DNA of 64,000 nt from positions 64,001 to 128,000 of IMG/VR virus record IMGVR_UViG_3300049988_000245; one strand, given 5' to 3'. Of the stretch, positions 11,546-60,271 are shown piece by piece; the stretch's first letter is position 1, and each line of letters starts with the position of its first letter. Under the pieces are notes generated by a model. That model made no database searches. It was not told the origin of the DNA and saw only the letters and a program-made list of their open reading frames with translations. A program made the position numbers and the translations under genes. This DNA comes from a virus (taxonomy: Duplodnaviria; Caudoviricetes).

Positions 11546-11950
11546 ATGGATAGCGTGGAGCCGAAAGCTAGGAAGCGCCCCGTCCCCACCAAGTATTTCA
11601 CTGAACTGGACGGTGGAATTCCGAAGCAATTCGTCCTCCCCATGACGATCAGGCAGAGGCGCCGAATCATGGGGGATTTTGCTGATTCTCAGAGCTTTAA
11701 TCAGCACTGTTGTGACCTCGAAGAGTGGGGCCGCGAGAACCAGATCGAGTTTCAGTTCGGTCTCCTCTACGACGTTCGTGAACGCTATTCTGCGGAGTAC
11801 GATCGCGTCATGACGGCGAACGATATTCCCGACCACGATCGAGAACGAATCCTCAAGGGCCTTCAGGACCGCGAGGAGTACCTGTTCAACGCGTTCTTCT
11901 TCGATAACCGTACCCACGCGTTCATGTTCAAGCTTCGCTGGTTCGGTTGA
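11546..11950 (+). CDS. FxLRW-family protein
   Basis: ...FFFDNRTHAFMFKLRWFG. Confidence 0.75.
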   Translation: MDSVEPKARKRPVPTKYFTELDGGIPKQFVLPMTIRQRRRIMGDFADSQSFNQHCCDLEEWGRENQIEFQFGLLYDVRERYSAEYDRVMTANDIPDHDRERILKGLQDREEYLFNAFFFDNRTHAFMFKLRWFG

Positions 11951-26831: not shown

Positions 26832-27147
26832 TAAAATCGTCGGACGATTCCTCGCGTCCGACAACATGCCGGAGCTTGTCCCAAATCTCCTCGGTGAGGA
26901 CCATCGTCGTGCCATCGACGCGGTCGTAGAGTTCCGGGGCGATCTCGCAGAAAATCTCGACGAGAGGATTCCCGCGCATCCGGTCGATGGGGAGAAATCG
27001 ATTCTTCACCGCCCGGAACAGCATCTCGCCGGGATCGCGCTTGATTATCACGTGCGCGCGGAACGATATCGTCGTGCGAATCCGGTCTGCGCCGACGATT
27101 TGTCGGCCCTGACGATTCGGGATCAGCGCGATGATCTGAGGGGGCAT
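26773..27147 (-). CDS. Hypothetical protein
   Basis: ORF track; ATG at 27147. Confidence 0.55.
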   Translation of the reverse strand: MPPQIIALIPNRQGRQIVGADRIRTTISFRAHVIIKRDPGEMLFRAVKNRFLPIDRMRGNPLVEIFCEIAPELYDRVDGTTMVLTEEIWDKLRHVVGREESSDDFIRSQQSARAGAPLKLTYPY

Positions 27148-27170
27148 GAATCCATGGTCCAAACATGGGT

Positions 27171-27490
27171 CCGGGGGCCGAAGCCCCCGGTTCTGTTTCT
27201 ACGGTTACCCTACCGCACGAAGATCACGCCGCGAGGCGGACTTCCATGGCAACGTTGTCGTTGACAGATATGTGTTTGAACAGTGCACGCAAACAGTTTC
27301 CTGCGTACGCAAGCCGTGTCTCAGCTTATGTCGCCTCGTGCTCCCCGAAGGAAGTCGATCTCTCTTGCCCCTTCACGCGCAATCGATCCCAAGTCGCCCC
27401 CATCAGGAGAACACTTCATGAAAGTGTGCTCATGGTGGAGGCGTGCGGATTCGAACCGCAGTGTTGCCGCGCTATCTCACAAGGTCTTCA
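27171..27490 (-). ncRNA. ssrA: Circularly permuted (two-piece) tmRNA
   Basis: Acceptor piece ending T-arm TGCGG-TTCGAAT-CCGCA + CGCCTCC-A-CCA (ends 27433); hairpin spacer; coding piece starting GGGGGCG at 27401 (7-bp stem with G3:U70); tag ORF 27265-27224 VNDNVAMEVRLAA*; 3' hairpin 27171-27190. 5' end approximate. Confidence 0.93.
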
Positions 27491-27499
27491 ACAGTGGGG

Positions 27500-27530
27500 T
27501 ATTTATAGCTGAGCGTCGGTGGAGTGTCAA
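27500..27530 (-). promoter_or_regulatory. Composite sigma70 and late promoter of tmRNA
   Basis: TTGACA-N17-TATAAA, where the -10 is also the exact TATAAATA late motif. Confidence 0.8.
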
Positions 27531-27563
27531 GAATGGTGGAGGCGGCGATATAATAAATAATAG

Positions 27564-28127
27564 ATGAAAACACCGCGTAGTATCTCCACCGTTTGTGCAA
27601 ATTGTTCCGTAGATTTTCTAAAAGCAAAAAAAGAGTACGATCGACAAATTCGGGAGGGAAGATCGTATTTCTTCTGTAGTCGATCTTGTAATACATCCCA
27701 CTCTAACAAGATGGCTTCACCGGAACGAGTGGAGGCAAGCCGTAAAAGGCTTACTCAGGCCCGCCTGGACGGTCTTATCCCGCCTCGAACAAGAGATGAG
27801 TCTTCTCCATATCGTTATTACATCAGAAAATCGAAATGTCGCGGTGTTGAAAGCAACCTCACAATATCCTACTTAAAATCTCTGTGGGAATATCAAGAAG
27901 GAAGATGCGTTTACTCGCACGTCGATTTGATACTTAATGAGTATGTTTCCACCAAGCGGCAGGATATACGATTCCTGGCCTCGTTGGACCGAATCGATTC
28001 GACCAAAGGCTACATCGAAGGAAACGTTCAATTCATTTCTGCTTGCATGAATTACGGCAAAAGCACTTTGACAGACTCGCAGTTTCGAGAGCTACTTGAA
28101 ATATTGAGGTCTTCAAACCGTAAGTAA
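27564..28127 (+). CDS. HNH endonuclease with N-terminal Zn finger
   Basis: CANC..FCSRSC; CVYS..SLDRIDSTKGYIEGNVQ..MN. Confidence 0.85.
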   Translation: MKTPRSISTVCANCSVDFLKAKKEYDRQIREGRSYFFCSRSCNTSHSNKMASPERVEASRKRLTQARLDGLIPPRTRDESSPYRYYIRKSKCRGVESNLTISYLKSLWEYQEGRCVYSHVDLILNEYVSTKRQDIRFLASLDRIDSTKGYIEGNVQFISACMNYGKSTLTDSQFRELLEILRSSNRK

Positions 28128-28425
28128 AGGATTTTCCGAATACGGCCTCCTTTGGTCCAGGCAGACCTCTGGTAGGGTTTTCACACGTGCCTGCGCGCTA
28201 CTTATCTGCTGACCGCATCCGGGAAAGTCTCTGTTGTGCGCGCTTCGTATCACCCTCCCTGGTGACAGCAGCCTTGCGGTAGTCCCCCTGTGGGGTCCGG
28301 GCGCGGACAACGATTCTGATATTAACCGAAACGTATCTTGAACTCAAATGCTAAGTTTGGGTGATCCAAGCGAAAGCTACGCCTTCGTACCGTAGCGGGC
28401 TACTCCTCGGATTCGATATGCTATC
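28127..28425 (-). ncRNA. Unassigned structured RNA candidate
   Basis: GC-rich stretch with no convincing ORF, dense in hairpins, between AT-rich genes; TTGACA upstream on minus strand. Confidence 0.5.
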
Positions 28426-28544
28426 CGTCGCTTCTGCTGTCAAAAAACAAGGGATTAATCTTGATAGAAGGACTTGATTGATCGATTCAAGTGATTCATG
28501 ATATTGGTTGTACGAATCTGTCCAACCACGAGATGAGGCTTTTT

Positions 28545-30707
28545 ATGATTCCGTTTCGTTACGCCATTGTTCTGAAGAATCTCACTAAGGCGCAGGTCGC
28601 AGCGCTTTGTATCCATGTCGCGGGTAAAAGATTGAATATGCCTCAGATTTTTAAGATCGCGTTTGATAACGATCTAATGTCGTTGATTGACGTTCGAGTC
28701 GGAGAAGAGCTTAATTCTCCGACTTGGAAGAACTCGTATCAAGGTTCTCTTGCAAACGAGGCCAAGCTTCCCAATTCGATAATTTCTCGATTTGAGAACG
28801 ATGGTCTCATGGAATATGACGTGACCGAGTATTTCGACATCGATTTGAAGAGAATTTTTGGTCCCAATTCATGGAAGGATTATGAGAACGCTTTGAACCG
28901 CGATCCGGAGATTCAAGAAGAAATACAGACTAAGTCGATGCATGTCGCAAAAATGGATTTCTTCATCAAAAATACTCTCGACACTGCGCCGGTTGGTGTG
29001 ATGTTTCGAGAGCTTGTGATGAACGGGATTGAGGCTCCCGCGCCTGAGAGCACTACAGAGAACTATCTCCGGAGAATCCGGATTATGAGCTACGACCACT
29101 TTGGCACACCGAAGGCTATGATCGTCAACAACGGGCGTGGACTAGACCGGTTCGAGATGGACCGGATGATGGCGCTTGCCTATTCCGGTGGAAAGGAAAT
29201 GGGTACCGAGGGTCGGTTGAATCGTGGTGAGGGCGCGAAAATCGCAGCAATGCGATTTAACAGGAACGGACTGGTATGGCAGTCCCGTAAGGGCGTAGGC
29301 CCGGTTTACCAGTGTGGTCTGATGTTCAATGAGGATACGGATTCCTACGGGCGCATCTTGGCTGAGAACGGACAAACCGTATGGCCTGCACCCGAAGACG
29401 ACGCAAACCCTTTTCCTTCTGGCGACTTTGTTCGTGTCATCCTTCTTGGAAATGATGCGAAGCAAGATACTGTTTCAAATCCGTATGGGCAGAGGGACTC
29501 GGCACATACGATCACGCGAGAAATCTGGAACCGCTGGTACAAGTATCCGTCCGTCAAAGACGGCTACCGCCTCATTGTAGAAACCTCCGACAAGGTGAAC
29601 AACCGGTCCGGAAAGGCTTTCCGCCGAGCCCTGTGCCAGCACGACTTTCATCAAAATGCCGCTGCGCACAATATCACCATCGATGTTGTCACCACTTCCG
29701 GAGACGTGAAGATCGAGTTCGTCCGCGCTGAACCCCTTAGCGAAACGTTCGGCAAGACCGCCTATAGTCGGGAGTCAACCGGCGAGAACGGTTCTCGCAT
29801 GGCAATCGTTTGGCGGAACGAGATGTACGACGTTCATGCTCCCGCCAAGTGGTACCTCGAAGCCTCATCATTTGGTTTGGGACCGCTGGCGGCATCTGTC
29901 GGCGTGTTTATCCATCTCCCAGACTCTTTTGACGCTAAGGATGACAGATTCCGGAGCACGCTGGAGTCGGGGGGGCATACCGTTGTGTGCAAAGACTTTC
30001 GCGAAGTCATCTTCAACGCGCGTCCGGAATGGATCAAGAAGGCTGTTGACAAGGCCCTGAAGCAGAAGTTTGATCTCAGCGACGTTAACCAATACCTTCA
30101 GGAGCTTGCAAATTCTCTTCGCCCTCAGGCTCCGGGCGCAGAGGATAATGTCATCGATCTTCGAACCAAGCGAGGCGGCAGCGGGGGTGGGGATTCGGCG
30201 GCTAAACGTCGTACCGGTCTTTTCTCAACGCGCGGGTCCGGTGCCAAGACGGGTACACCGATTGTGGCCCCTAGCGTTCACTGGTCTACGCCGTCCGAGG
30301 AGCCTAACCTGAAGGATCGCGGTGCCTACTTCAACCGGGCGACCAATGCACTCTTTTTGAACGAGAACTATGGCCCGATCAAATCGATCGGTAATCGTAT
30401 CGAGGGGCAAATCTACCCCCCTCGCATCCAGTTGACCGACGAAGGTGTCGTCGAGCTTCGTGAGCTTGCGAAGTACGAGATTTATCGACGGTTGGGAAAG
30501 GCTGTCGGCGAACTGGTGGTACGAGGAATCGCCAAGGCTGGCGAGCAGAACTGGACCGAGGAGCAGATCGATCAGAGTGTTGGTGCTGACGCTTTGACGA
30601 TCAACACTGAGACCAACCGTGATGCCGAAATCGTCGCGGCCATCAAGGCTTCTCCGCAGTACAAGCACATCATGACCAAGGTGTCTGCGGGGCAGGCAAC
30701 GGCATGA
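28545..30707 (+). CDS. GHKL (HSP90/MORC/rIIA-like) ATPase
   Basis: FRELVMNGIEA (N box), VNNGRGLD (G1), NRGEGAKIAA (G2). Confidence 0.8.
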   Translation: MIPFRYAIVLKNLTKAQVAALCIHVAGKRLNMPQIFKIAFDNDLMSLIDVRVGEELNSPTWKNSYQGSLANEAKLPNSIISRFENDGLMEYDVTEYFDIDLKRIFGPNSWKDYENALNRDPEIQEEIQTKSMHVAKMDFFIKNTLDTAPVGVMFRELVMNGIEAPAPESTTENYLRRIRIMSYDHFGTPKAMIVNNGRGLDRFEMDRMMALAYSGGKEMGTEGRLNRGEGAKIAAMRFNRNGLVWQSRKGVGPVYQCGLMFNEDTDSYGRILAENGQTVWPAPEDDANPFPSGDFVRVILLGNDAKQDTVSNPYGQRDSAHTITREIWNRWYKYPSVKDGYRLIVETSDKVNNRSGKAFRRALCQHDFHQNAAAHNITIDVVTTSGDVKIEFVRAEPLSETFGKTAYSRESTGENGSRMAIVWRNEMYDVHAPAKWYLEASSFGLGPLAASVGVFIHLPDSFDAKDDRFRSTLESGGHTVVCKDFREVIFNARPEWIKKAVDKALKQKFDLSDVNQYLQELANSLRPQAPGAEDNVIDLRTKRGGSGGGDSAAKRRTGLFSTRGSGAKTGTPIVAPSVHWSTPSEEPNLKDRGAYFNRATNALFLNENYGPIKSIGNRIEGQIYPPRIQLTDEGVVELRELAKYEIYRRLGKAVGELVVRGIAKAGEQNWTEEQIDQSVGADALTINTETNRDAEIVAAIKASPQYKHIMTKVSAGQATA

Positions 30708-31393
30708 CGGTCAGCGTAACCCTCAAACGGGAAGACGAGATTCGAATCGTTTCCCTACACGTCGAGGCTGAGTGGCCTCTGCGGAAAATCGCAGAGACTT
30801 ACAGCACCAGCAATCATCGCGTTAAACGCATCTTGGAGCGCCACGGCGCTCCAATTCGAACCGAAGGCTGGAAGTTGGAGCCACTTTCCGAAGAACGAAA
30901 GAAACAGATTAGTAGTCAACAAAAAGGGCTTCCTTGCTGGATGCGAGGAAGAAAAATGACCGATGAACATCTTCGAAAGATGATGGCAAGTAAGTTGAAA
31001 ACAAAACGGTCTTTATCAGAATATAAAGACCTCGAACGATTGAAAATCCTTACGGGTATAACGTCCAGGCATCGAAAGATGCTGAGCTTTACCGATGAAT
31101 CGCGATTCGCGTTCATTGACAAGTTCTATTTCGATGAAGCATTCAACGCAATATATGATGCTTGGTTAGTAAACGACAAAAATAAGTGGTGGTACCCTTC
31201 GATTGATCATAAAATCCCGAAATCGTTGGGAGGATGTTTCTCCCTCGACAATCTTCAATTCTTAACTTGGTTTGAGAATCGGGCAAAGGCTGATATCCCC
31301 CAGGATCAATGGGAGGAGCTTAAGAGATTCACGAACACAAAGTCGAACCTTTTCATAGAATCCATTCTTGAATCGCGGCGACGATCTAATTGA
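30704..31393 (+). CDS. HNH endonuclease with NUMOD3-like motif
   Basis: WMRGRKMTDEH; PSIDHKIPKSLGG..LDNLQFLTWFEN; AT-rich. Confidence 0.85.
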   Translation: MTVSVTLKREDEIRIVSLHVEAEWPLRKIAETYSTSNHRVKRILERHGAPIRTEGWKLEPLSEERKKQISSQQKGLPCWMRGRKMTDEHLRKMMASKLKTKRSLSEYKDLERLKILTGITSRHRKMLSFTDESRFAFIDKFYFDEAFNAIYDAWLVNDKNKWWYPSIDHKIPKSLGGCFSLDNLQFLTWFENRAKADIPQDQWEELKRFTNTKSNLFIESILESRRRSN

Positions 31394-35322: not shown

Positions 35323-37146
35323 TTAGTTCGTGAACGAAAGCGAGGTGATTGACTGACCTGCGTTCAGCTTGAAGCGAACGAGAATCTGGTTACCCGTCGA
35401 GTTCGTCGAGGACTGAGTACCGAAGGTACCAACGAAGGTGCCACCGTTACCAGACATAACCGTACCCAGGGCGCAGCCCGTGGTCGGATCGCCTGCTTCA
35501 CCGGGGACGCCCGCGCCGTCGTACGGCAGGTACATGTTCCACCAACCGTTCGCGTCAGAGCCGGACGGGGAGATGGAGGAGTTGTCCGAGACGCCCGGAA
35601 GCTTGATCTGGCAACCGGCGTAGTTACCGGCAACGACGATCGAGAACTTGGAGACGGCCGAACGGTTGAACGAGAACGTCACGTACTGGACGCCAGCCTG
35701 CGTGGACAGGTTCGGACCAGCCGGGAGGTAACCGACCGAGTAGTTGGTCTGATCGGCGCGGAGGACACCAGCGACGACAGCGGCTTCGTACGTGGCAAGA
35801 GCGACGGACGGGTCGAAGGTCGTCGCGGCAGCGGCCGGGGTATCGCCGTTCGCGGTGTTGACGCGAACCGCATTGTTGTTGTTCGGGAGAGCGCCGAGTC
35901 CGGAGACAGGTACGTTCATCTCGTAGACCTTGCCAGCCTGGGTACCAGCCATGACGAGGACGTTCGTGGCAAGACCAGCAGCGCCGGAGCCGTTGACGTT
36001 CTTAGCAGTGGCCGAGAGCGTACCGACAGCGAACACGTTCGAGCCGTTAACGTTGACGGTCACCGGGGTGATCGCCGTGGCAGCGGTGGTGTTGCGTGCG
36101 ATCGGGGTGGTGATACCCTGAGCGCCGTAGGTGTAGCTCTGAGCGCCGATGATGCCGTTTGAGCCCGAGACGACGAGCGGATCAGAACCACCGTAGTAGG
36201 TCTCGCCGGAAAGGTTGGCGACCGAGAGACCGAGCGTCAGGGTTCCGCCAGCGTTGTAGTGAGGAACACCCGAGGAGTACGAAACCGTGCCGAGGGTGCT
36301 CTGAGCCACAGTAGCCAGCGTCACAGCCGGAACCGCAGTCATACCGTCCTTGACGAAGTAGATTTCGTTGGATGCCGAAGCAGCCGTATCAGTGAGCTTG
36401 ATCTTGTTGACACCGTTCGAGGAGGTCGGACCAGCCACGGCAACATCGATCGACTTCCAGAATCCAGGGGTGGAAACCGGGTAGTCCTTCTGGTCGCTGA
36501 TCTGGAGACCGCCGAACGTACCAGCGTCGCCCGAACCGGTGAGCGTCTTAGAACCGACAACTGCGCCGTTTAGAAGGAGCGAGATGGTGCCGGAATCCCC
36601 CGGACCAACGTCATTGAGTGTGTTGGTGGTCGGATTGTTGACGATACGAGTAACCGACTGGCCAGCCGCATACGGCGAGGTGGTCGAGTTGTCCGGAACG
36701 CCGCCAGCGGCGAGGAGCGGGGTGTTACCGGTAGCGTTGTTGATCGAGATCGCGCCGTTCGGGAACTGCGGGGGCTGTGACGGGATGAGCTTCGCCAGAA
36801 CTTCGTTCAGCGAATCCACGGCGTCAGACACCTTGGTCGTATTGGTCAGTGCGATCGCGCCGGGTTGCCAGGAGCCGTCACCTTTGGAGGAAACGTCGCC
36901 TAGATTGAGATCAAATCCATCGACGTTGCCGATCGCCGTAGAGGCGTTAGACTGCACCTGCTGAAGCTGGGAGAGCGTCACGAGATCGTTCAGCGCCACG
37001 GCGTCCTTACCCTTGACGTTCGTCAGGGAGCCGGTTGCAGTGACGGCTTCGAAATGTCCCGAGTTAGCGACGAACTTAGGTCCAGCCTTACCGAACTGAA
37101 CCTGCGTACCAACGCCAACAAGGCCGAAATTCTTTGTATCAGCCAT
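35323..37146 (-). CDS. Virion structural protein (fibre/baseplate-associated)
   Basis: 607 aa, Gly/Ser/Thr/Asn-rich beta-type composition; late promoter upstream. Confidence 0.7.
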   Translation of the reverse strand: MADTKNFGLVGVGTQVQFGKAGPKFVANSGHFEAVTATGSLTNVKGKDAVALNDLVTLSQLQQVQSNASTAIGNVDGFDLNLGDVSSKGDGSWQPGAIALTNTTKVSDAVDSLNEVLAKLIPSQPPQFPNGAISINNATGNTPLLAAGGVPDNSTTSPYAAGQSVTRIVNNPTTNTLNDVGPGDSGTISLLLNGAVVGSKTLTGSGDAGTFGGLQISDQKDYPVSTPGFWKSIDVAVAGPTSSNGVNKIKLTDTAASASNEIYFVKDGMTAVPAVTLATVAQSTLGTVSYSSGVPHYNAGGTLTLGLSVANLSGETYYGGSDPLVVSGSNGIIGAQSYTYGAQGITTPIARNTTAATAITPVTVNVNGSNVFAVGTLSATAKNVNGSGAAGLATNVLVMAGTQAGKVYEMNVPVSGLGALPNNNNAVRVNTANGDTPAAAATTFDPSVALATYEAAVVAGVLRADQTNYSVGYLPAGPNLSTQAGVQYVTFSFNRSAVSKFSIVVAGNYAGCQIKLPGVSDNSSISPSGSDANGWWNMYLPYDGAGVPGEAGDPTTGCALGTVMSGNGGTFVGTFGTQSSTNSTGNQILVRFKLNAGQSITSLSFTN

Positions 37147-59588: not shown

Positions 59589-60271
59589 GCGGCGGCCTTT
59601 AGATACGCGTCAACGCGGTTCAAGAACGAGTCCATGTGTTTGTCGAATTCCAACCCCTCAAGGACGAATTCCTTGTAGTCGAGTTCGCGCGAAACCATGA
59701 AGATCACACCTCGTTTGATGTCAGTCCCGTACACCTCGTTGTGAGCGAGCGAGTACGCGCACATCTGATCGAAATAGTCCACGATCATGTCGCGGGTGCG
59801 CATCTTCTTCGCCGTCTTGTGATCCATGATCGACGGAATGCCCTCGTGGACGCCGACGAGATCGGTCATGCCCCCGTAGAGGCCGGGGAAGTACATCGCA
59901 ACTTCCTGGCCCCAGACCTCGTCCACCTTGGGTAGGCCCTTGGTGATGATCTGGTCGGCCATCCTGGCGGCCTGGATACGCACGAGGTTGTTCCCGCCCG
60001 GCCGGGGAATCCCCATGACGTAGTTCTCGATATGCGTGTGCATGAGCGTACCGAGACCGGTCGCTTCCTTGCGCACCCTGTCGGCTTTCTCCTTACCGAC
60101 CCGCTCCTCCCAAAGCTTGATCTGGGTCTTGTCTGAGGTACCCGATAGGATCGTCGTCACGCTCGGGAGCGGTGTTCCATCGGTCGGGTCCATATAGAAC
60201 CGCGTACCGTCCTCATGGGTGATTCGGGAAATCTCCGGGTATTCGAAAAGACGATTCAGTTTAACCGACAT
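59585..60271 (-). CDS. PD-(D/E)XK exonuclease (MGME1/Cas4-like)
   Basis: PSVTTILS, GTLMH..IE, G.TDL..IMDHKTAKK, Q..AY..A. Confidence 0.9.
   Translation of the reverse strand: MSVKLNRLFEYPEISRITHEDGTRFYMDPTDGTPLPSVTTILSGTSDKTQIKLWEERVGKEKADRVRKEATGLGTLMHTHIENYVMGIPRPGGNNLVRIQAARMADQIITKGLPKVDEVWGQEVAMYFPGLYGGMTDLVGVHEGIPSIMDHKTAKKMRTRDMIVDYFDQMCAYSLAHNEVYGTDIKRGVIFMVSRELDYKEFVLEGLEFDKHMDSFLNRVDAYLKAAA

Follow-up and report, generated by a model that had tools for sequence, protein, structure and literature searches.

Circularly permuted genes that encode two-piece tmRNAs are known from three lineages (PMC9004378, PMC11915505), and they also occur in phages. In the survey of Buchholz et al. 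(2022), 53 of 133 unique phage tmRNAs were of the two-piece form, and the Caulobacter phages CcrSC and CcrBL9 appear in Table S1 of that paper (PMC9004378); 79 sequences from phages are included in the tmRNA database (PMC11915505). Among the described systems, the Methylophilales phage Melnitz and the pelagimyophages carry complete two-piece tmRNAs of the alphaproteobacterial type with a predicted early (sigma-70) promoter, and ribosome rescue or selective tagging was proposed as the role of these marine myophage RNAs (PMC9004378). For the giant phages of Caulobacter and Brevundimonas, the Dolichocephalovirinae, Gill et al. (2012) did not mention a tmRNA in their account of phiCbK, and the Brevundimonas phage paper stated that none was detectable in an ARAGORN screen. 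Phage two-piece tmRNAs as such have already been published; the locus described here is a further one, of interest for its Methylobacterium origin and a Val-first tag that it has in common with other phages.

Structure of the permuted tmRNA gene and its promoter

The window that we analyzed is a stretch of 64,000 nucleotides, corresponding to bases 64001-128000 of the 265,895-bp IMG/VR virus record IMGVR_UViG_3300049988_000245 (CheckV completeness, ~57%). Its minus strand contains a circularly permuted (two-piece) tmRNA gene at approximately 27168-27495, which was detected by ARAGORN as well as by Rfam/Infernal; all features of the gene given below are located on this strand. The ARAGORN call, labeled "Permuted", spans 27133-27526 and has the tag VNDNVAMEVRLAA; within it, the 3' tRNA domain, the 5' domain and the tag are at positions 55-94, 126-152 and 262-303, respectively. 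Infernal matched the Rfam model tmRNA_permuted (RF04321) to 27224-27495 over model positions 1-213 of 213 with 77.3 bits (E = 4e-13) against a gathering score of 47 bits, and the outcome for this model was the same when the whole 266-kb record was searched. The three lineage-specific Rfam models all remained below their gathering thresholds, the tRNA-like domain matching each of them, so that the merged model alone passed. Scores were 30.6 bits (threshold, 50) for alpha_tmRNA (RF01849), which aligned over model positions 69-184, the tRNA domain, only; 52.4 bits (threshold, 84) for beta_tmRNA (RF01850), which aligned over its full length to 27166-27544; and 27.7 bits (threshold, 70) for the third. 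The two-piece tmRNA of the original prediction was thus recovered by ARAGORN and by RF04321. As to the check proposed with it, ARAGORN or Infernal with the alpha_tmRNA model, the former gave a call, and the latter fell short. The accompanying premise that permutation marks the alphaproteobacterial form does not hold exclusively, given the three lineages mentioned above. A pattern combining T-loop, acceptor end, spacer and GGGG had a single match in the window and none in 100 shuffled sequences. The minimum free energy fold recovered the acceptor stem, the spacer hairpin and the terminal hairpin, and it was more stable than those of shuffled sequences (z = -3.4).

The order of the gene is permuted: the acceptor 3' piece with its CCA end comes first, and the 5' GGGG piece and tag frame lie downstream of it. 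According to the Rfam alignment and ARAGORN, the acceptor piece (27433-27495) comprises the 5' strand of the long tRNA-domain helix, the T-arm UGCGG-UUCGAAU-CCGCA and the 3' strand of the acceptor stem with its ACCA end (CGCCUCC-ACCA, 27433-27443); its 5' end is a prediction derived from the start of the Rfam model and the distance to the promoter. A 31-nt intervening spacer with the hairpin ACACUU/AAGUGU follows (27402-27432; read directly and folded), which is putatively excised in processing. The coding piece (27168-27401), delimited by Rfam, ARAGORN, alignment and fold, contains the strand GGGGGCG (27395-27401), a D-like region, the linker and pseudoknot-region hairpins, the tag frame and the trailer hairpins. 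At its 3' end, sequence reading and folding identified a GC-rich terminal hairpin, CCGGGGGC-UUCG-GCCCCCGG (27171-27190). GGGGGCG and CGCCUCC form a 7-bp acceptor stem with a G3:U70 pair and an A73-CCA end, and its pairs were preserved in all 16 aligned sequences; in the long tRNA-domain helix, the Rfam alignment shows non-canonical pairs at the three outermost positions. The acceptor-first order, the G3:U70 stem and the spacer hairpin could each be read directly on the minus strand as they had been predicted. This was also the case for the tag frame at 27265-27224, GUC AAC GAC AAC GUU GCC AUG GAA GUC CGC CUC GCG GCG UGA, for which ARAGORN returned the same tag.

A -35-like hexamer, TTGACA (27525-27530), and a -10 region, TATAAATA (27500-27507), whose hexamer TATAAA lies 17 nt past the -35 element, were read directly upstream of the gene. 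The arrangement TTGACA-N17-TATAAATA extends over 27530-27500, and the match to RF04321 begins 5 nt beyond it. The strict sigma-70 rule of the tool made no call here because the -10 hexamer TATAAA is without the final T. TATAAATA occurs nine times in the 266-kb record (approximately three copies expected); seven of the nine copies are outside long same-strand ORFs, and four, the tmRNA copy included, have TTGnnn 17 to 18 nt upstream. In the tmRNA genes of all five relatives inspected, TTGACA is positioned 17 to 18 nt upstream of ordinary -10-like hexamers. Based on the TTGnnn elements at several copies of TATAAATA and on the ordinary -10-like hexamers in relatives, the promoter looks to be of a sigma-70-like type used by host RNA polymerase. 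The original prediction had proposed a promoter that is both sigma-70 and late type, with expression throughout infection. Its sigma-70-like part agrees with these observations. A T4-type late promoter is unsupported, since the 266-kb record has just nine copies of TATAAATA, several of them preceded by a TTGnnn -35 element at 17 to 18 nt; expression throughout infection is likewise unsupported. Independently of the tmRNA locus, a promoter-like motif, TTGACATC(C/T)T..N..TGTAYATT, corresponding to a -35 hexamer and an extended -10, is repeated across the record, with copies at window positions 11947 (plus strand), 25507 (minus strand) and 40950 (minus strand) and at record positions 36976, 146592 and 237169. 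It is probably the main early promoter class of this phage.

A second copy of the 11-mer CGCCUCCACCA, which forms the acceptor 3' end, is present 3 nt upstream of the -35 hexamer (27534-27544, minus strand). Lying 101 nt apart, both copies of this direct repeat belong to the tmRNA locus, and the 11-mer has no further occurrence in the 266-kb record. The repeat may represent the scar of a duplication, an att-like core or a sequence tied to the adjacent HNH gene, which is divergent from the tmRNA gene and starts 20 nt past the repeat. This gene (27564-28127, plus strand; PHROG 3322) is one of two HNH/endonuclease VII-like genes near the tmRNA, the other being located at 30704-31393 (plus strand; PHROG 1035); a Pfam search returned nothing for either. 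Between the first of them and a 738-aa ORF, the ORF-free interval 28127-28490 contains a minus-strand TTGACA. This interval gave no Rfam match at E values up to 10, and the idea of a further, intron-split tmRNA in the region of the HNH gene and the interval was rejected.

PHROG matches on both flanks of the tmRNA gene are to HNH/endonuclease VII-like families and to phage families of unknown function. With phage-type genes on either side in a 266-kb viral record, the gene is phage encoded, as had been predicted. The kinship of the phage with Dolichocephalovirinae is defined by a single 607-aa tail-region protein (35323-37146), which matched 53 phage records at 53 to 59% identity, almost all of them Dolichocephalovirinae. 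DNA searches of INPHARED with the tmRNA and with the surrounding 20 kb yielded no matches, nor did exact and semi-degenerate T-arm/acceptor patterns in IMG/VR. A broader pattern retrieved 119 viral loci from IMG/VR, with no close relatives among them, and a neighboring S49 peptidase used as a probe for relatives led to three short contigs, all lacking a tmRNA. An Rfam search found no riboswitch near the gene. This distinguishes it from the tmRNA of Melnitz, which is linked to a glutamine riboswitch; Melnitz and the pelagimyophages also differ from this phage in being T4-like myophages of streamlined marine bacteria. Approximately 4.3 kb before the window, at record positions 59598-59752 (minus strand), ARAGORN found two adjacent tRNA genes with a CUA anticodon, labeled tRNA-Pyl and of the amber-suppressor type. 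They prompted a look at TAG recoding, of which there was no sign: 30 of 163 long ORFs end in TAG.

Relationship to Methylobacterium ssrA

A pattern of the acceptor stem and spacer was run over 185,579 species genomes, and its matches were almost exclusively in Alphaproteobacteria. One of these matches, ssrA of Microvirga lenta, reached 69 bits in an nhmmer comparison with the phage tmRNA, and the tmRNA of phage CcrColossus 14.7 bits. Sampling was then done in the family and, subsequently, the genus of Methylobacterium sp. BTF04 (146 genomes). Of the 146 Methylobacterium genomes, 81 gave matches. The best of these covered 278 nt, beginning at the T-arm and ending with the terminal hairpin, at 73% identity, and over tag and trailer identity reached 85 to 89%. 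By blastn, Methylobacterium ssrA scored 146 bits. Compared segment by segment with one Methylobacterium copy, identity was 48% in the acceptor piece, 61% in the spacer, 62% in the 5' tRNA-like part, 52% in the linker, 86% in the tag and 82% in the trailer. The block of high identity begins at the resume codon, and a mosaic generated by recombination at this point was considered. Host-host comparisons display the same gradient, with tag and trailer most conserved; recombination was therefore not invoked.

The phage gene and Methylobacterium ssrA have the same order of acceptor piece, spacer hairpin and coding piece, the same stem GGGGGCG/CGCCUCC and near-identical trailer hairpins. Both encode a 13-codon tag in which NDNV, M and RLAA are kept, and an 18-nt run, GCCUCCACCAUGAGCACA, is identical in the two. 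They also have in common approximately 55 nt of extra linker with a CUUCGG hairpin that is absent from other genera of the family. The 31 nt AACAGAACC..GGACCC at the terminal hairpin also recur in the Microvirga family sample, in three ssrA loci whose tag is not that of the genus Methylobacterium. The phage spacer hairpin is homologous to Methylobacterium GAGCACA..UGUGCUU, its pairs being preserved via compensatory changes, and changes on both sides of a pair between phage and hosts were seen in three helices. They affect three pairs of one linker helix, one pair of a helix between tag and trailer, and one pair of the terminal hairpin. These compensatory changes argue for ongoing selection on RNA structure.

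Several features set the phage gene apart. It resides in a phage genome behind a different promoter. Its resume codon is GUC, its tag is VNDNVAMEVRLAA and its stop codon is UGA, whereas Methylobacterium ssrA has GCC, ANDNVVMDARLAA and UAA. The three bases before the resume codon are UCU in the phage and AAU in Methylobacterium, and the T-loop is the canonical UUCGAAU in the phage versus the non-canonical GGGCAGUAC in Methylobacterium. Among the Methylobacterium copies themselves, tag and acceptor piece are nearly invariant across 32 genomes.

Leaf-metagenome runs contain this stretch of the phage, and no RNA run was among the matching runs. In separate runs, single contigs cover the tmRNA and both flanks without differences, two of these runs being possible sources of the record. 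Higher-depth contigs in the same runs match 27165-27263 only and then continue into the host sequence CUCUAAAU-GC, diverging exactly at the resume codon; judged by their sequence, they are Methylobacterium-type ssrA from the same samples. In one run, a second contig differs at 28 of 219 nt over 26900-27118, in a 136-aa ORF that lies downstream of the tmRNA, so the leaf sample also contains a related strain of the phage. The phage gene is far too diverged from the 146 Methylobacterium genomes, the best of which has 73% identity overall, to be stray host DNA, and the leaf contigs span gene and flanks. Host contamination and chimeric assembly were rejected on these grounds. With Methylobacterium ssrA as its nearest relative, of the same architecture, the sequence comparison identifies the phage tmRNA as a diverged capture from a Methylobacterium-like alphaproteobacterial host, in line with the capture and divergence that had been predicted. 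The presence of both the phage and Methylobacterium-type ssrA in leaf samples is consistent with this origin.

A valine resume codon in this and other phages

In Escherichia coli, the tag reading frame is set mainly by A86, which serves as a ruler at a distance of four bases before the resume codon; the three bases between them matter little, and the tag template can be replaced (PMC2481249). The phage sequence around the resume point reads AUAUCU|GUC, and the frame closes with RLAA followed by UGA. GUC (27263-27265) is aligned with a GCC resume codon in each of the 32 Methylobacterium ssrA loci, and the phage has the same U(-5)A(-4) as the hosts. If AAC were the first codon, U would be placed at -4; therefore, the templated tag (27224-27265) begins with Val, and the Val codon that had been predicted is found exactly at the host GCC position. 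In full, the peptide appended would read A-VNDNVAMEVRLAA. All 32 genomes have one and the same host tag, and the phage tag differs from it at 4 of 13 residues (A1V, V6A, D8E and A9V). At the nucleotide level, 6 of 42 bases of the frame differ, and GUC represents a single C-to-U transition. An Ala (GCN) resume codon is typical of permuted tmRNAs but does not define them. It was present in all of the approximately 140 alphaproteobacterial ssrA loci examined, which comprise a genome scan (90/90), all called ssrA genes of the Microvirga family sample and a further set (35/35) that includes the 32 Methylobacterium loci. The statement in the original prediction that host tags typically start with ANDN likewise held for the alphaproteobacterial loci examined.

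The same resume codon was encountered in Dolichocephalovirinae. RF04321 matched with 57 to 88 bits in all five records tested, and GUC behind A(-4) was found in 10 of 10 giant phages of Caulobacter and Brevundimonas, including phiCbK, Magneto, Rogue, RBC8 and CcrPW, in the context ..AAAU|GUC in nine and ..AACU|GUC in one. The tags following GUC vary (NDN, AANDN, ASNDN, NASNDN, ADNDN and EAHNDN). ARAGORN missed the permuted tmRNA in 5 of the 10 phages. The Brevundimonas phages Kabachok and Bajun each have one permuted tmRNA, and in 37 of 37 GenBank records of Caulobacter phages that match the CcrColossus tmRNA, no tmRNA annotation is present under the match.

The tmRNA described here resembles those of Dolichocephalovirinae in its permuted form, its TTGACA promoter, GUC behind A(-4), NDN in the tag and the AA end, and it is carried by a phage with a related tail-region protein. 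It differs in its 31-nt spacer, compared with 36 to 104 nt in Dolichocephalovirinae, and in its surroundings: the Caulobacter phages inspected have the tmRNA beside tRNA genes (tRNA-Met and often tRNA-Cys), whereas ARAGORN found no tRNA genes near the gene in the window. No flanking proteins were common to the two sets of loci. Membership in the Dolichocephalovirinae tmRNA lineage was thus rejected for want of locus synteny, in view of the 14.7 bits for CcrColossus against 69 bits for Microvirga and, by blastn, 146 bits for Methylobacterium ssrA, and with GUC as the sole commonality. Since the phage gene is of the Methylobacterium type and non-syntenic with the Caulobacter-phage loci, its GUC looks independently acquired.

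A further case is the contig IMGVR_UViG_3300032560_000024, which is T4-like, with baseplate proteins nearest to those of Caulobacter phage Cr30. Its permuted tmRNA (6120-6459) reads UAAAU|GUC followed by GCA AAU GAU AAC, yielding the tag VANDNDIVDFALAA. No permuted tmRNA was found in the T4-like alphaproteobacterial phages Cr30, phiM12 and phiN3. On contig IMGVR_UViG_3300032560_000024, TATAAATA is located 8 nt before the RNA start, an arrangement as in the window.

The recurrence of GUC in other phages is suggestive of more than random drift in this one. It is possible, if on balance improbable, that tmRNAs of lytic phages of Alphaproteobacteria carry a Val (GUC) resume codon as a signature that recurs under selection, with at least three independent origins (phiCbK-like siphophages, this phage and the T4-like contig), and that cellular alpha-type tmRNAs are invariably Ala-first. 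The literature consulted on these phages and on phage tmRNAs does not mention a common GUC resume codon.

Proposed function and significance

The gene is probably an intact, expressed-looking two-piece ssrA of a giant phage, of Methylobacterium-like origin and evolved separately since, which would serve ribosome rescue with host factors and an altered tag. Its expression, processing and charging and its part in rescue and proteolysis are inferred as follows. Host RNA polymerase would transcribe one precursor from the sigma-70-type promoter, and host tRNA-processing enzymes would cut out the 31-nt spacer, leaving an acceptor and a coding piece that pair with each other in the 7-bp acceptor stem and in the long tRNA-domain helix. 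The RNA may then be charged with alanine by the alanyl-tRNA synthetase of the host via G3:U70. Host SmpB and EF-Tu would bring it to ribosomes stalled on broken mRNAs, where translation would resume at GUC, four bases past the conserved A, and the Val-first tag would be added behind the charged alanine. The LAA end could direct the tagged product to ClpXP. The predicted net effect is a greater capacity for ribosome rescue in infection, with a tag that differs from that of the host at residue 2 of the appended peptide and three others. SmpB (PF01668) was not found in the 266-kb, ~57% complete record, and the phage RNA presumably relies on the SmpB of the host. All sequence elements that a functional tmRNA must itself supply are present, namely, the Ala identity pair, a T-arm and a CCA end, the U-A that sets the frame, an open tag frame and LAA, so that rescue with host factors is the best-supported reading. 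Points against it are the failure to find SmpB, the acceptor piece as the most diverged segment relative to Methylobacterium, the sub-threshold scores of the lineage-specific models, the non-canonical outer pairs of the long helix, the -10 hexamer without its final T and the incompleteness of the record.

In E. coli, residue 2 of the tag is read by the protease adaptor SspB and the protease ClpA. The altered tag may itself be the selected function, changing recognition by adaptors and proteases of the SspB/ClpA type while the ClpX-binding LAA is kept, and so shifting the fate of tagged proteins. Such a role would fit the occurrence of GUC in this phage, in the 10 Dolichocephalovirinae and in one T4-like contig when every cellular locus examined has GCN, the apparently independent acquisition of GUC in a Methylobacterium-type gene, and the four substitutions relative to an invariant host tag. 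We nevertheless regard it as unlikely. A single transition is sufficient to produce GUC in a frame that differs at only six bases, and the chance of a coincidental GUC is approximately 5 to 10% by our own estimate from the alignment. GCN is retained in 75 of 84 permuted tmRNAs on IMG/VR contigs, including contigs of 146 to 368 kb, and the reading of residue 2 by SspB and ClpA is knowledge from E. coli, not from Methylobacterium.

The RNA might instead act on the host system as a decoy or competitor that binds host SmpB or enters stalled ribosomes, damping or diverting host trans-translation. A precedent, cited in PMC11915505, is the CDS-less tmRNA-like RNA of mycobacteriophage DS6A, which is reported to inhibit the endogenous tmRNA, and a phage RNA whose record yielded no SmpB would compete with the host tmRNA for that of the host. 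A decoy would have no need of the complete tag frame, the frame-setting U-A and the canonical LAA end, of an intact alanine identity pair or of helices maintained by compensatory changes, all of which make this role very unlikely. Least credible to us is a functionless passenger, whether a recently acquired host gene that is decaying, an attP-like trace left by integration into ssrA or an assembly chimera containing host DNA. tmRNA genes are common integration sites (PMC4383910), an 11-nt copy of the acceptor 3' end is found just upstream, and the 18-nt run is identical to Methylobacterium ssrA. Yet the 266-kb record yielded no tyrosine integrase, and an integration remnant was rejected for this reason. 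No part of the gene is missing, a promoter of its own precedes it, and the compensatory changes oppose decay. Its divergence from the 146 Methylobacterium genomes is too great for a chimeric fragment, and the leaf-run contigs, two of the runs possibly being the source of the record, continue through both flanks.

The preferred reading, rescue by a captured tmRNA with an altered tag, has several implications. This is a phage tmRNA with an identifiable donor lineage, and its tag differs from an invariant host tag at four positions, the first templated residue included; phage-tagged and host-tagged peptides should therefore be separable in one experiment, the C-terminal ends to tell apart being AVNDNVAMEVRLAA for the phage and AANDNVVMDARLAA for the host. 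For this uncultivated giant phage, the gene also provides a host prediction, namely, Methylobacterium on leaves. In phiCbK-like phages, tmRNAs have gone unannotated even though these phages are well studied, and all 10 that we examined have the same non-alanine resume codon. If GUC were indeed a recurrent, selected feature, phages would rewrite residue 2 of the tag and thereby alter the fate of rescued proteins, beyond adding rescue capacity, and the phage tag would be a mass-spectrometry marker that distinguishes phage-driven from host-driven trans-translation.
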